Source: Phage NC-G
Sequence record: MK310184
Reading direction: 5' to 3' (one strand)
Length of the DNA stretch: 64,000 bases
Part shown: in pieces, positions 816-5,631 of the stretch
Layout of the letters: every line of letters starts with the position of its first letter
Position numbering within the stretch: the first letter of the stretch is position 1
Made by a program: the position numbers and the translations under genes
Notes under the pieces: model-generated
Database searches by the model: none
What the model saw: only the letters and a program-made list of their open reading frames with translations
Told to the model about the DNA's origin: nothing

Positions 816-822
816 CAAAAAA

Positions 823-842
823 AGGAGAGCTTACGCTCTCCT
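823..842. terminator. Bidirectional hairpin between convergent gene 54 and the alt-distal gene
   Basis: aggagagc-ttac-gctctcct stem-loop with an A-run upstream and T-run downstream. Confidence 0.6.
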
Positions 843-850
843 TTAGGGGT

Positions 851-1141
851 TTATTTACGGAACGAGATAAAACCTGCGGCGGTCATTAATGGCTGCTTTT
901 TAACAAAGACCGTGATAGAAATAGGAGCTTCAGATTCAAGCTGGCCGGTTACTACACCATTAAAGATATTTTCAGTTTGTTCGGGTTGTGAAAAATTTTC
1001 AACCGGGCGTAAGTCGAACTGTTTGTCTTCGCCGAAAACTCGACGTAATTCATTACCTACTGCACTGTCGAACTCTTCAGAAGCAGGGATAACGTTTTCA
1101 ACTACCAGCTCTTGACCATTAAAACGGAATGCAGATTTCAT
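851..1141 (-). CDS. Hypothetical protein (96 aa) downstream of alt
   Basis: ORF with GAGGAG Shine-Dalgarno and its own early promoter immediately upstream. Confidence 0.55.
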   Translation of the reverse strand: MKSAFRFNGQELVVENVIPASEEFDSAVGNELRRVFGEDKQFDLRPVENFSQPEQTENIFNGVVTGQLESEAPISITVFVKKQPLMTAAGFISFRK

Positions 1142-1169: not shown

Positions 1170-1199
1170 ATAGTACCACATCCTTGTGGCGTTGTAAAC
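1170..1199 (-). promoter_or_regulatory. Early sigma70-type promoter (GTTTAC -35, TACTAT -10)
   Basis: Minus strand reads GTTTAC, 18 nt, TACTAT; same motif family as about 15 other sites. Confidence 0.5.
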
Positions 1200-3322
1200 T
1201 ACATTTTGAATTTATTTGATAAAGAAGAGATGTCCAAAGATGCAGCAAGGATTTCCATAGCCTCATTACTTTCTGAAACAGATTCTGAAACTAGGAATTC
1301 TTTAAACCCATTCATCAATTTAACTTCACCGGTTTCCATCAGATGGTCGCCATCGTAAACGGATTCGCTGAGTTCTGAAGGAGATGTCACTGTAGCTTCC
1401 ATAAGGTATTTGTGAGATACTCTATCATTCATAGCAAAAGCCGCTACTTTATCAACCTTCAACAATAACCCGCGCGGAAGGATAATTTCCGCTTCTTCGG
1501 CATATTCTGTAAGGTCGCCAGGAGCGATAACTTTAACTGCTTCAGCACCTCGAATAACCATACCAATTTCAGCAATCCTGTCTGCAGGGCCTTCAGGTGC
1601 AATTGGATTACCAAACTCGTCTTCTTCCCATTCTACCTCTTCGTCATCGACTTCACCTACGTCAGATGAACTACCACTGGCTAATTTAAACAACTCATCA
1701 GCGGAGGATAAAGAACCTTCATCACCAACAAAAACTGCTTGGTTGTCGAGGGCCATATAATTTTTACCAAATTCGCCAAAGATATTAGGCTTTAATGAAG
1801 CGGACACAAAGTTCTTAAAGTAAAATGTTTTGTTATCAATATTATGGCGCAGAATTTTGTATGGTAAATCCTGACCACGATACAAAATAGTACCCTTAGG
1901 AAGTTTAATACCCTTGGTAAATGCTGAGTCTAAATCCTTAATCAATTTAATAGCTGTTGTATTGTTTTCGGATTCAGGTTTACCTAAAAGGAATAAGTTC
2001 ATAGGAGCATATTCAGCCGCACAATATTCAATAATGGCATTACTTTCGTCTTTGGTCAAGCCCTTAGGTTTAATGAGCTCGCCTGAATAAGCATATGCAT
2101 CGCTAATAGAATCGTTAATCAGTTTATAAACGGCTTCCATAGCGAAAGCAATTCGGGATGCTTTCTCTGAAGGAGACCCCTGAAAACGGGCACTCAGGTT
2201 ATTAACAATTCTCTTAATAATATCCAGACTATTGGTAGTATTGATTTGAGAAAGGCCACTTAAAAGTCTATCGACTTCCGTATTAAAAAATGCCATATTA
2301 TTAGAGTAAATTTCAAACCCTTGTTTATCTCTATTAGCATAATTTAGTTTAAATTTACTATCAGTCATTAAAGCGTGCGTGAGAGCAATGGTGTATCTAA
2401 AGTTGGCAAGGTCCTCACTCTTAGATTTAAACTGAGAGGCCTGACGCATTTTAGTAATAGCACCTTTTTTAAAGTTCTGACTAATCTGCTCAATACCTTC
2501 GTTCTCAGGGCCTTCGGCCGAGTGAACAGGGACAGAAGCTTCAAACTCGTTATAAACCTGCAATTCTTTAGGTGATAAAGTTTCAGGTTCGGCAGTAGAA
2601 TACTGTGCTGCTGCAGCCATACGACGGGAAATCTTAGTACGAGAAATAACAGCCTTATCGGTACGTTTCTCTTCAACCTGTGCAATAGATGCCGCTACGG
2701 CTTCTACTTTACTTACGGCCTGGCCGGTTTTCTTAGAAACATAAACTTCACCGACTTTAGACTCAACCTTGGTATAAAGGTCTGCATCAATTTCAGGCAT
2801 ACCCTTGATATCTTCGATATTAGAACCACGACGTACTAAAAGGACGTAGGTATGTTTACCACTAAACTGGAACATATCATCGACAACTTTAAACTTACCA
2901 CCGGTACGTGCCATCGCCAAACGAGCTAATACACGCTGAACAGTAGGGCCCTTACCTTTCATTTTCTTGGTAGGGAAACGGAACAAAACCGCATCCATTT
3001 TAAGTTTGTTTACTTGTTCGTATACAGTATCGAAAATAGTATTCAGTGTACCAAGTGGGTCAGAACCAAGCCCGCCTTTGAGTTCGGCTGGAGCACCCTT
3101 GCTAGACAAACTCATTAAAATAACATGAACGTATTTGTCGCCAGGCTTAACCATTTTAATAGCGTCTCCTTGAGACGCATAAGATACCATACGAGCAACC
3201 AGGTTATCATTACCTGGCGCTTGGATAGAGAAAATCTGTGGGATACCTGAGCCTGGCTTAAGATTTGTTACTGGATAGTTTTTAGCTGAATCACTATCAA
3301 AAACTTCGTTTAAATTTTCCAT
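1199..3322 (-). CDS. alt: Alt-like ADP-ribosyltransferase, paralog 1 (707 aa)
   Basis: N-terminus MENLNEVF...LVARMVSYASQGDAIK matches the T4 Alt start; C-terminal half has YRG, FVSAS and EAEIILPRG (R-S-E arrangement). Confidence 0.85.
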   Translation of the reverse strand: MENLNEVFDSDSAKNYPVTNLKPGSGIPQIFSIQAPGNDNLVARMVSYASQGDAIKMVKPGDKYVHVILMSLSSKGAPAELKGGLGSDPLGTLNTIFDTVYEQVNKLKMDAVLFRFPTKKMKGKGPTVQRVLARLAMARTGGKFKVVDDMFQFSGKHTYVLLVRRGSNIEDIKGMPEIDADLYTKVESKVGEVYVSKKTGQAVSKVEAVAASIAQVEEKRTDKAVISRTKISRRMAAAAQYSTAEPETLSPKELQVYNEFEASVPVHSAEGPENEGIEQISQNFKKGAITKMRQASQFKSKSEDLANFRYTIALTHALMTDSKFKLNYANRDKQGFEIYSNNMAFFNTEVDRLLSGLSQINTTNSLDIIKRIVNNLSARFQGSPSEKASRIAFAMEAVYKLINDSISDAYAYSGELIKPKGLTKDESNAIIEYCAAEYAPMNLFLLGKPESENNTTAIKLIKDLDSAFTKGIKLPKGTILYRGQDLPYKILRHNIDNKTFYFKNFVSASLKPNIFGEFGKNYMALDNQAVFVGDEGSLSSADELFKLASGSSSDVGEVDDEEVEWEEDEFGNPIAPEGPADRIAEIGMVIRGAEAVKVIAPGDLTEYAEEAEIILPRGLLLKVDKVAAFAMNDRVSHKYLMEATVTSPSELSESVYDGDHLMETGEVKLMNGFKEFLVSESVSESNEAMEILAASLDISSLSNKFKM

Positions 3323-3325
3323 TAT

Positions 3326-5410
3326 TTACCCTTGGATGAATTTTTCTGGGATGTCATAGAGGTCTATGCATGAAGCCAAAAGAGGCAGTACGTCAAACCG
3401 TGTAGATTTAACAAATGAATCAAAAGATACAGGGCTTTCGGAAGTATCGAAGTCATCTTGGTATACAACCAATTCACCAGTTTCCATTAGTACGTCGCCA
3501 TCATACACTACAGATTCTTGAAGCTCATCTGTCGTCATAACTTCGGCTTGAACGAGTTTTGTATTATTAGATGTTGTTCCGTCATTATTAGAGGCGTCAG
3601 TTATTTTATTAACTTTGACCATCAATCCGCGTGGTAGAATAACTTCAGCTTCGGTTGCTATTCCGAGACTTCCTGGATATACAACATTAACTTTATGGGC
3701 TCCATCAATTGCCCATCCTATTTGAACTTTAACGTAATCAGGGTTTTCTTTATACGCTCTTATTTCATTAGGATTAATGGTTATTCCTTCTTCATTTTTA
3801 TCGACTGTCAATTCATTGCGAACTTCCGGTTCTAAAAGACCTACACCCGCGTGTGTAACACCAAAACGTCCAAAAATGATAGGAGTCAGTGAAGTAGATA
3901 CAAAATTTCTGAAATAGAACACTTTATTTTTAACTAGCGCTTCGTATATAGGAGCAGTCATACTTTGAGCACGATAAACTGTAATGCCTTCTGGTATACG
4001 GTCACCATTTTCAAAAGCGGAATCAAGATTATTAACAGCAGATTCAATAGACCTTTCACTCATCACATCATAGTTCTGAGGATTGTAACGCCCTAAAAGA
4101 AGATTATTGATGTCGGTATATCCTGAGCCACAATATTCTCTAATGCCACGCTTTTGTGATGGGGTGTATTTAGAACCATCGCGAGCAATAGTAATATCGA
4201 CCATAATACCACCACCTACGCCAGCAAAACTATACACGCGTTTTTTAATGAACTTGGTCTTGGCTGCTTTCCACTTGGACTCGGTTAATTCATTCCAGAC
4301 GTCGTCAGGTTGACCTTTACGAGTTTTGTTATGTATAGCCAACCATTCACCTTTGTATTCTTCGAAAACCGTATTAATAACAGAGGCATATTTTTCTAGA
4401 GCTTTAACAGATGTCAAAGGTTCGTTTTTGATGGCTGTAAGAATTTTCTCTTTAATTTTCTCTTGAATTTCACCTATGCCGTGAAGTGGAAACATTTTAT
4501 ATTCGTAATGCAACTCTTCAGCAGTGCCTTCAGCTACTATATTAGCAACTTTATTTTTAGCCGCAGGAGAATTGTTATTGGTGACCATTTCCTGGGCCTC
4601 AGGGATTAACGGAGCTGTTGCAGGTTTATTAAAATCTGCTGCAGTAGCTTCATATTTCTTAAACAGTTCACTTTCATTACGATAAGATTCTAAAGATTGA
4701 CTGGCTGCAATAGCTCGACGAGAAATCTTAGTCTTGGTTACAACCATTTTATCAGTGCGACGTTCTTCGACTTTAGCAATACTGCCGGCAATAGCAGTTT
4801 CTTTAGTAACCTGCATGCCTTCTTTTTTAGAAATATAAACTTCGCCAACATCAGAATCTACCTTAGTATACAAATCAGCATTAATTCCTGGCATACCTTT
4901 GATATCTTCAATATCAGCTTGTTTACGAACTACTAGGATATAAGTATGTTTACCAGTAAATTGGTACATAGCCGGAACTACTTTGAAGCGGCCGCCTGTT
5001 TTTTGAGTTACCAAACGTTGGATGATTCTCTGGACGATAGGTCCTTGCCCTTTCATTTTCTTGGTTGGAAAACGGAACATGATAGCATCCATACGAAGCT
5101 TTTTAACTTGTTCGAATACTACGTCGAAAATGGTATTAATAGCATCAATAGGAGTAGGGCCTAAGCCGCCTTTAAGTTCGGCTGGAGAACCTTTAGCTGA
5201 AAGGCTCATAAGGATAACGTGGGCGTATTTATCACCTAATTTAACCTGTTTAATAGCATCGCCTTCAGAGGCATAAGATACCATACGAGCAACTAATTGG
5301 GATTCGGCGTCGCCAATCTTCCAAATCTGCGGTACTTTAAGTTTTGGGTTTAAGTTTACAGTAGGCAGGGTGCCTTCGGACTCAAACACCTCATTCAATT
5401 GTTCGGTCAT
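3326..5410 (-). CDS. alt: Alt-like ADP-ribosyltransferase, paralog 2 (694 aa)
   Basis: N-terminal half closely parallels paralog 1; C-terminal half divergent but keeps YRA, FVSTS and EAEVILPRG. Stop is 3 nt from the paralog 1 start. Confidence 0.85.
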   Translation of the reverse strand: MTEQLNEVFESEGTLPTVNLNPKLKVPQIWKIGDAESQLVARMVSYASEGDAIKQVKLGDKYAHVILMSLSAKGSPAELKGGLGPTPIDAINTIFDVVFEQVKKLRMDAIMFRFPTKKMKGQGPIVQRIIQRLVTQKTGGRFKVVPAMYQFTGKHTYILVVRKQADIEDIKGMPGINADLYTKVDSDVGEVYISKKEGMQVTKETAIAGSIAKVEERRTDKMVVTKTKISRRAIAASQSLESYRNESELFKKYEATAADFNKPATAPLIPEAQEMVTNNNSPAAKNKVANIVAEGTAEELHYEYKMFPLHGIGEIQEKIKEKILTAIKNEPLTSVKALEKYASVINTVFEEYKGEWLAIHNKTRKGQPDDVWNELTESKWKAAKTKFIKKRVYSFAGVGGGIMVDITIARDGSKYTPSQKRGIREYCGSGYTDINNLLLGRYNPQNYDVMSERSIESAVNNLDSAFENGDRIPEGITVYRAQSMTAPIYEALVKNKVFYFRNFVSTSLTPIIFGRFGVTHAGVGLLEPEVRNELTVDKNEEGITINPNEIRAYKENPDYVKVQIGWAIDGAHKVNVVYPGSLGIATEAEVILPRGLMVKVNKITDASNNDGTTSNNTKLVQAEVMTTDELQESVVYDGDVLMETGELVVYQDDFDTSESPVSFDSFVKSTRFDVLPLLASCIDLYDIPEKFIQG

Positions 5411-5448
5411 AATAATTCCTCTTTAATAACCGTATTTATGCCATAAAA

Positions 5449-5460
5449 GGCCCGAAGGCC
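5449..5460 (-). terminator. C(UUCG)G hairpin after the small ligase-distal ORF
   Basis: Minus strand ggcc-uucg-ggcc followed by TTTTAT. Confidence 0.45.
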
Positions 5461-5631
5461 TTAAAGTGGTAGCAACGTACGATATACTTCGAATGTCGGG
5501 CCTTTTTCATAGCCATCAAACATGTCTTTAAAATCGGCAAAAGCTATTTCATCCTCAAACTCTAGGATGATTTGAGAGGCCGCAGTGGTATTTGTGTTTG
5601 TTACAACAATTGTTTCTAAATAAGCTTTCAT
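5461..5631 (-). CDS. Small hypothetical protein (about 56 aa; the track ORF is longer)
   Basis: Internal Met start lies 1 nt after the ligase stop; the longer track ORF would overlap ligase by 41 nt. Confidence 0.4.
   Translation of the reverse strand: MKAYLETIVVTNTNTTAASQIILEFEDEIAFADFKDMFDGYEKGPTFEVYRTLLPL

Follow-up and report, generated by a model that had tools for sequence, protein, structure and literature searches.

Phage NC-G carries two adjacent genes, altA and altB, that are related to alt of phage T4, the gene for a capsid-delivered ADP-ribosyltransferase (ART); they lie near the start of the 64,000-nucleotide (nt) stretch of its DNA analysed here (sequence record MK310184, hereafter the window). 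On balance, we think it probable that altA and altB are a standard Alt pair whose products would be made late, packaged, processed and injected, and would act on distinct targets. The sequences directly show the gene structure, the motifs, the purifying selection, the phylogenetic incongruence and the recombination; late expression, packaging, processing, activity and distinct targets are predictions. AltA is the ortholog of T4 Alt, and AltB an old, separately conserved paralog.

Two full-length Alt genes under purifying selection

In an earlier reading of the letters alone (the initial annotation), the window was described as carrying two full-length Alt-like genes of 707 (altB) and 694 (altA) residues, head to tail and 3 nt apart, with highly similar first ~240 residues and with C-terminal halves that had diverged yet kept a YRG/YRA, FVS(A/T)S and EAE(I/V)ILPRG arrangement. 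The open reading frame (ORF) listing agrees with this gene structure, and BLASTP aligned amino acids (aa) 3–238 of AltA with aa 2–240 of AltB at 65% identity (E 2e-104). The C-terminal regions (aa 416–691 versus 423–705) aligned at 33% identity (E 1e-36), with 33–36% identity for the ART domains, and the middle of the two proteins (aa ~240–415) gave no alignment. The three motifs were located at residues 479–481 (YRA), 503–507 (FVSTS) and 587–595 (EAEVILPRG) of AltA and at residues 481–483 (YRG), 505–509 (FVSAS) and 610–618 (EAEIILPRG) of AltB. The similarity between the two proteins is far beyond chance; both match PF03496 ADPrib_exo_Tox (8e-36 and 6e-18) and, end to end, PHROG 802 'Alt-like RNA polymerase ADP-ribosyltransferase' (1e-262 and 7e-251).

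The catalytic residues are R480, S505-T-S507 and E587-A-E589 in AltA and R482, S507-A-S509 and E610-A-E612 in AltB. Arg, Ser-x-Ser and Glu-x-Glu are retained in 21 of 21 Alt proteins from 11 loci, and an alignment of 73 database proteins shows no variation at S507, E610 and E612 (AltB numbering) and at least 90% conservation of R482; by motif check and this alignment, neither copy carries an inactivating substitution in the catalytic Glu or Arg. In C3/VIP2-type ARTs, Glu-x-Glu instead of Gln-x-Glu predicts arginine specificity. The ratio of nonsynonymous to synonymous divergence (dN/dS, by Nei-Gojobori) was 0.03–0.07 for AltB overall and 0.00–0.03 for its ART domain when compared with the JS10, AnYang, IME341, WG01 and dhaeg orthologs, and 0.04–0.07 for AltA overall when compared with those of JS10, AnYang, IME341 and WG01. 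Both copies are under strong purifying selection.

The AlphaFold2 model of AltB (predicted local distance difference test score, pLDDT, 80; predicted template modelling score, pTM, 0.73) comprises an alpha/beta N-domain (aa 1–230), a helical middle (250–417), an ART (420–650) and a low-confidence C-terminal tail, and in Foldseek the ART part matches Vis, C3/C3bot, Certhrax, VIP2 and CDTa. A PDB sequence search with the full proteins returned only weak iota-toxin matches for AltA (E ~2e-3), none for AltB and no solved Alt structure. Because the R/SxS/ExE residues are retained, the gene is under purifying selection and the modelled fold matches known ARTs, AltB is a gene under constraint, looks catalytically competent and is not a decaying copy.

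Between Ser-x-Ser and Glu-x-Glu, AltB has a stretch of 100 residues with 24 Asp/Glu. This linker is 100 aa in window AltB versus 58–92 aa in the other Alt proteins, and its acidic insert (e.g. DVGEVDDEEVEWEEDEFGNP) is confined to Dhakavirus AltB among the loci examined. The insert is strongly acidic and, with pLDDT below 50 at aa 552–564 and 573–577 of the model, disordered. Such an insert, together with Ser-Ala-Ser at the active site, would suit an internal head protein that is structural or catalytically dead, a duplicate decaying as in T4, which has lost most of the gene. We regard this explanation of AltB as very unlikely, given that R482, S507, E610 and E612 are kept, that the ART domain has so low a dN/dS and that the full-length gene is found in T2, T6, RB3, Moon and the 465 records described below.

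The Alt pair in related phages

The first 7.2 kb of the window are 97.2% identical to Escherichia phage Esco_phi_B-01 and 96.8% identical to JS10, both of them members of Dhakavirus (the JS98 group of T4-like coliphages), to which the window belongs. The gene pair is already known: the same genes, in the same order, are named alta (upstream) and altb in JS10 (record EU863409) and IME08. The spacer in JS10 is likewise 3 nt and its altb is 99% identical to window AltB, with essentially no other difference.

The two-gene Alt locus is ordinary for the family, and T4 is the exception. In tblastn, the AltB-specific part (aa 241–707) had matches in 1,221 phage records, 465 of them with at least 80% query coverage, which indicates a full-length AltB-type gene; the N-domain alone was found at 1,823 places in 1,201 records. 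Two tandem copies are also present in Moonvirus (Moon), Citrobacter phage Ursula and Aeromonas Biquartavirus, and three copies occur in some Dhakaviruses, arranged in at least two ways (AnYang, 694-681-707 aa; WG01, 631-693-707 aa). In RB3, T2 and T6, alt (697 aa) is followed 3 nt on by a 685-aa gene with the same tandem layout and motifs as window altB. These genes (RB3 'alt.-2' and its T2/T6 counterparts) are AltB-type orthologs, with 48% identity over the full length, 54% in the ART and 44% in the middle. They differ from window altB in having a Tequatrovirus-type N-domain (46% identical to that of window altB, 66% to that of RB3's own Alt) and in lacking the long acidic insert (linker of 77 aa versus 100 aa in window AltB).

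Two observations on annotation and copy type belong here. The second Alt gene of T2 and T6 is annotated merely as 'hypothetical protein', at 99% identity to RB3 'alt.-2'. The first copy in WG01 (631 aa; locus L007, 5591–7486) is a third kind of Alt, upstream of altA, whose ART clusters with Moon/Ursula gene 1; it has the ITE motif and lacks the YDGDxLMETGE tail.

The statement in the initial annotation that T4 carries one alt holds for the full-length gene but leaves out a relic, alt.-1/alt.-2, at the same junction, as well as the full-length pair in T2, T6 and RB3. In T4, alt.-1 and alt.-2 occupy the altB slot, 3 nt after alt, and encode the first ~125 residues of the Alt N-domain; the junction is homologous (window ...CAAGGGTAAATAATGGAA versus T4/RB3 ...CAAGGATAAATCATGGAA), and ~1.69 kb are missing from this broken relic relative to RB3 gene 2 (RB3 gene nt 367–2056). 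According to the T4 RefSeq record, alt.-1 and alt.-2 'together reflect an old duplication of the first part of gene alt', and Nolan et al. 2006 gave the same old-duplication origin for them and described Aeromonas phage 44RR as having a full-length duplicate of alt (PMC1524935). In our comparison, alt.-1/alt.-2 are evidently the remainder of an AltB-type gene after deletion. T4 Alt itself aligns with altA over the full length (47% identity; 63% in the ART and ~46% in the N-domain), and the two are alike in their neighbours, hairpin-plus-promoter layout, R/STS/ExE motifs and both gp21 motif positions; the promoter box differs, being TATAAATA in T4 versus CATAAATA in the window.

Incongruent histories of N-terminal and catalytic domains

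The 21 Alt proteins from 11 loci were compared domain by domain, and trees were built. N-domains cluster by phage lineage, with bootstrap values of 100% for Tequatrovirus plus Moon-type, 86% for the Dhakavirus paralogs and 100% for the Aeromonas pair. Paralogs within one genome share 65% (window), 66% (RB3), 60% (Moon) and 57% (Aeromonas avDM9) N-domain identity, and orthologs between genera ~46%. ART domains, on the other hand, cluster by type: an AltB type comprising the window, RB3 gene 2, Moon gene 2 and Ursula gene 2 (96% bootstrap); a third type comprising Moon gene 1, Ursula gene 1 and WG01 gene 1 (100% bootstrap); and an AltA type comprising window AltA, RB3 Alt, T4 Alt, JK45 and PEi26.

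Because orthology between Tequatrovirus and Dhakavirus extends over the junction and over the middle and ART of AltB, the altA/altB duplication predates the split of the two genera, and the higher within-genome identity of the N-domains then requires homogenisation of the N-module, cassette exchange, or both. A duplication after which the catalytic half diverged, as the initial annotation implies, is too simple a history, because the AltB-type ARTs form an old clade across genera and the N-domains group by lineage, a pattern that points to homogenisation and cassette exchange.

That history in its strongest form would be a recent tandem duplication specific to Dhakavirus, with a conserved N-terminal half and a catalytic half that diverged fast. 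It would explain why the two window N-domains are more alike (65%) than those of altA and T4 Alt (46%); we nevertheless find it improbable, since the AltB ART and middle are orthologous to those of RB3/T2/T6 gene 2 (44–54% identity; 96% bootstrap), the window has its inter-gene junction in common with T4 and RB3, synonymous divergence (dS) between the window N-domains is 1.9, and the same within-genome pattern recurs in RB3, Moon and Aeromonas avDM9. Recent gene conversion between the window N-domains was also considered and was rejected on this dS value and on finding no tract above 76% DNA identity.

ART cassettes have moved between genera. RB3 Alt and T4 alt are 93–98% identical in DNA at nt 1–740 and beyond nt 1880 versus 45–74% between these segments, and RB3 Alt and window altA are 62–71% identical at nt 715–1200 versus 84–96% at nt 1255–1900. 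For the latter pair, dS is 0.39 in the ART segment, as among Dhakaviruses, versus >2 in the N-domain. The swapped block of RB3 Alt extends from the end of the N-module to the C-terminal cleavage site; altA of phage dhaeg has a different block at nt 1165–1820. Among the 73 database proteins, those whose N-domain is at least 85% identical to that of AltB have ARTs that are 100, 66, 41–42 and 34–35% identical to AltB's, and one ART paired with an AltB-like N-domain is 60% identical to AltA's; AltA-type N-domains pair with three ART subtypes, and one N-allele with at least five ART types.

At the protein level, the ART of T4 Alt is the outlier among the T-evens. RB3 Alt and T4 Alt are 99% identical in the N-domain and 94% in the C-tail, and the RB3 ART is 95% identical to that of Dhakavirus AltA and 66% to that of T4 Alt. 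The Alt proteins of RB3, T2 and T6 are mutually 98–99% identical, with an ART 95% identical to Dhakavirus altA.

A further exchange is visible within altB. By sliding identity, the first ~300 nt of window altB are 92–94% identical to AnYang copy 2 and the remainder ~93% to AnYang copy 3, and the breakpoint was placed at nt 299–303 (maximum chi-square 72.9, 162 informative sites, permutation p ≤ 1e-4). This breakpoint shows that an unequal crossover in the N-module links 2-copy and 3-copy arrays. Since WG01 AltB also carries the 'window-type' 5′ end, the event may have been a deletion from three to two copies or the reciprocal change from two to three.

Predicted late expression, packaging and targets

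T4 alt is a late gene (PMC9697503). In the window, CATAAATA occupies the exact place of the late-promoter box TATAAATA in T4, RB3, Moon and Ursula, and this C variant is common to Dhakavirus, PEi26 and JK45. The hairpin GGCCTTCGGGCC is at the same position in T4, RB3, JS10, AnYang, WG01, PEi26, JK45, Moon and Ursula; Nolan 2006 (PMC1524935) also noted that a terminator is conserved ahead of alt. The 3-nt gap between altA and altB contains no promoter-like site. Sigma70-like sites were not enriched (13 found versus 13.1 expected), and therefore no claim is made for early transcription. From these signals we infer, as the most economical reading, one late altA-altB-alt.-3 transcript starting from CATAAATA.

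T4 Alt is present at ~40 copies per head (PMC9026906) and is cut by the prohead protease gp21 at ITE-6 and LTE-619, which removes 63 C-terminal residues; the role of both pro-peptides is unknown (PMC5694885). Both window proteins have L-N-E at residues 4–7, aligned with the N-terminal cleavage site of T4 Alt, and ELQE↓S (AltA, E632) and ELSE↓S (AltB, E653) align with the C-terminal site. Thus, [LI]-x-E motifs lie near residue 6 and ~55–63 residues from the C-terminus in both proteins, and in both a conserved YDGDxLMETGE tail comes after the C-terminal motif. Because L-x-E motifs are short and frequent, the cleavage sites are predicted solely by alignment to the T4 sites. From the motifs kept at both ends, the shared late-promoter-like site and the purifying selection, we infer that both proteins are packaged, processed and injected.

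Two other T4 ARTs, ModA and ModB, are small, early-expressed proteins. They are host-takeover enzymes of the same R-S-E ART clade as Alt but, unlike Alt, are neither packaged nor injected (PMC5512222). An AltB that is active but not injected could likewise work late in the producing cell, or could be held inactive there by its pro-peptides; such a role would be compatible with the unknown function of the T4 Alt pro-peptides (PMC5694885) and with the indirect nature of the case for packaging. We consider it doubtful, as AltB and packaged T4 Alt have in common the N-module, the two aligned protease motifs and the C-terminal pro-peptide, and being packaged and injected is just what sets Alt apart from ModA/ModB.

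A second alternative concerns the function of an injected AltB, which might be a redundant dosage duplicate that does the same job on the same targets and merely raises the amount of enzyme delivered. Architecture, catalytic motifs and transcription unit are indeed the same for AltA and AltB. This is unlikely, since the ARTs are only 33–36% identical, the middle domains give no alignment, and in Tequatrovirus, Dhakavirus and Moonvirus alike each type persists as an orthologous clade of its own, as expected for distinct functions and not for dosage copies. In addition, alt- mutants were reported to package more DNA (PMC3012670); if this is taken as Alt filling head volume, a redundant copy would come at a cost.

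We return to the reading of AltA and AltB as an injected pair with distinct targets. The targets of T4 Alt are RNA polymerase alpha (Arg265), MazF and others, and by orthology ADP-ribosylation of RNA polymerase alpha by AltA is plausible. AltB most likely modifies host proteins other than AltA's, because its middle domain is unrelated and its active-site loops are different. The different substrate range suggested in the initial annotation is a reasonable expectation for AltA and AltB, and its picture of two active capsid-delivered ARTs, probably with different targets, is likewise reasonable and now better supported. In this pathway, late transcription from the single promoter-like site CATAAATA would yield an altA-altB(-alt.-3) transcript, and both proteins would be built into the prohead core, where a gp21-type prohead protease would trim them at the N-terminal L-N-E and the C-terminal L-x-E↓S. 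They would then stay in the head and enter the host with the DNA, each to act there as an arginine-specific (Glu-x-Glu) mono-ADP-ribosyltransferase.

Several points weigh against this pathway. The promoter box is one mismatch off the consensus, short A/T-rich motifs are common, and the exact TATAAATA does not occur in the Alt locus, while its count in the window shows no enrichment (5 found versus 6.9 expected). The L-x-E motifs are short, with 13 [LI]xE sites in AltA and 7 in AltB, and AltB has Ser-Ala-Ser, not Ser-Thr-Ser. T4 lives without AltB, and AltB is therefore dispensable in the laboratory. Finally, literature searches found no virion proteomics, biochemistry or function for an AltB-type protein and no direct evidence for its expression, packaging, cleavage or activity in any phage.

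The N-terminal module

The N-module of ~240 residues corresponds to PF26846 'Tevenvirinae_ADPRT', and PF26846 and PF03496 occur together in 120 of the 120 AltB homologs listed. With a profile built from both window copies, a search of 1.84 billion representatives gave only 72 clusters, the module being N-terminal in every case. Searches of the local Pfam copy, NCBIfam and PDB sequences with single sequences and a 12-sequence profile (E ≤ 10) found no relatives of the N-module outside the family. Two conserved Gly-rich strand-to-helix loops, ELKGGLG and KKMKGKG, lie in the module (AltB aa 80–125, window 2948–3084, minus strand, with the corresponding AltA residues); L81, L85, G86, P89, R115 and G123 do not vary in the 12-sequence alignment, nor does K120 in the 73-sequence alignment. 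The loops are reminiscent of phosphate-binding loops, and as an acetyl-CoA-binding signature they are only suggestive. By sequence the N-module had no Pfam or PDB-sequence match at E ≤ 10 that would place it among GNAT proteins; a carrier module, possibly with a weakly GNAT-like fold, is a lead rather than a finding.

Four N-module proteins among the 72 clusters (1142, 541, 485 and 347 aa) are without a detectable ART domain. The 1142-aa protein (metagenomic contig ERZ27297857 k141_536389; locus L016, 552–3980) has PF26846 at residues 14–211 and no ART was detected in it; the module therefore occurs on other C-terminal regions. A non-ART N-module protein, P0172, is on a 4.7-kb contig.

Layout of the locus

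The alt locus sits between gene 30/alt.1 and alt.-3/gene 54, as in T4, and its features are collected in Table 1. The altA stop and the altB start share one reading frame (GGG TAA ATA ATG), and read-through of the altA stop codon would yield a hypothetical AltA-AltB fusion of 1402 aa. A possible Shine-Dalgarno sequence (SD) for altB is AAGGG inside the altA 3′ end; the SD of alt.-3, GAGGAG, comes after altB, and no terminator lies between altB and alt.-3. T4 mutants with a C-terminally extended Alt.-3 evade the CmdTAC defence, in that they block the degradation of CmdA (PMC11618068). The whole 64-kb window (1–64000) contains no tRNA genes and no Rfam matches.

Table 1. Features of the alt locus in the window and Alt genes of related phages
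Feature	Sequence	Position	Strand	Remarks
altA	window	3326..5410	-	ORF listing; 694 aa, upstream gene, T4 Alt ortholog
altB	window	1199..3322	-	ORF listing; 707 aa, downstream gene, second Alt paralog
Spacer, altA stop to altB start	window	3323..3325	-	3 nt, ATA
alt.-3 homolog	window	851..1141	-	96 aa; last gene of putative altA-altB-alt.-3 unit
alt.1 homolog	window	5461..5631	-	Upstream neighbour; last gene of gene 30 (DNA ligase) unit
Hairpin GGCCTTCGGGCC with UUCG loop, and T-run	window	5445..5460	-	Terminator-like, upstream of alt unit; directly after alt.1 stop codon
Late-promoter-like box CATAAATA	window	5433..5440	-	1 mismatch from T4 late consensus TATAAATA
Shine-Dalgarno AAGAGGA of altA	window	5417..5423	-	Sequence reading
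Terminator-like hairpin and T-run	window	821..844	-	End of altA-altB-alt.-3 unit; faces convergent gene 54
Acidic low-confidence insert of AltB	window	1577..1720	-	aa ~535-582, between Ser-x-Ser and Glu-x-Glu
Recombination breakpoint in altB N-module	window	3020..3024	-	Gene nt 299-303; maximum chi-square
altA domains	AltA	aa 1-632		Pro-peptide 1-7 (LNE↓V, predicted), N-domain 8-238, helical middle 239-415, ART 416-632
altA C-terminal pro-peptide, predicted	AltA	aa 633-694		Cut after ELQE632
altB domains	AltB	aa 1-653		Pro-peptide 1-6 (LNE↓V, predicted), N-domain 7-240, helical middle 241-420, ART 421-653
altB C-terminal pro-peptide, predicted	AltB	aa 654-707		Cut after ELSE653
T4 alt	locus L003	4455-6503
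RB3 alt	locus L012	1642-3735
T6 Alt pair	locus L014	4298-8452
T2 Alt pair	locus L015	5737-9891

A modular Alt locus as a possible effector array

In both proteins, the N-module and the conserved C-terminal pro-peptide flank a swappable 'middle + ART' cassette. A bolder and more tentative proposal, which we hold to be possible but not the likelier case, is that the Alt locus is a modular effector array. The lineage-specific N-terminal carrier and the C-terminal pro-peptide would then mark a protein for head incorporation and processing and, at the same time, act as homology arms with which co-infecting T-even-type phages could swap, add or delete 'middle + ART' warheads. AltB, AnYang copy 2 and WG01 copy 1 would be injected enzymes, each with its own host targets, which might include defence systems in the way that MazF is a target of Alt. 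The MuF-fused or 'polyvalent' phage head effectors (Iyer et al. 2017; 2022) follow a like logic, with a head-associated carrier and variable effector domains, although the Alt N-module (PF26846) is not MuF.

To the known gene pair, the present analysis adds the lineage-clustered N-domains, the type-clustered ARTs, the movement of cassettes between genera and the altB breakpoint that ties the array sizes together. Cassette exchange explains the inconsistent annotation of Alt, with one to three 'Alt' genes per genome, and suggests that the set of capsid-delivered enzymes varies among otherwise near-identical therapeutic phages. Overall, T4, the model for phage ADP-ribosylation, is the degenerate case: a second conserved Alt enzyme is encoded, if not also injected, by T2, T6 and hundreds of relatives, and knowing what AltB modifies could bring to light one more step of host takeover or anti-defence at the very start of infection.

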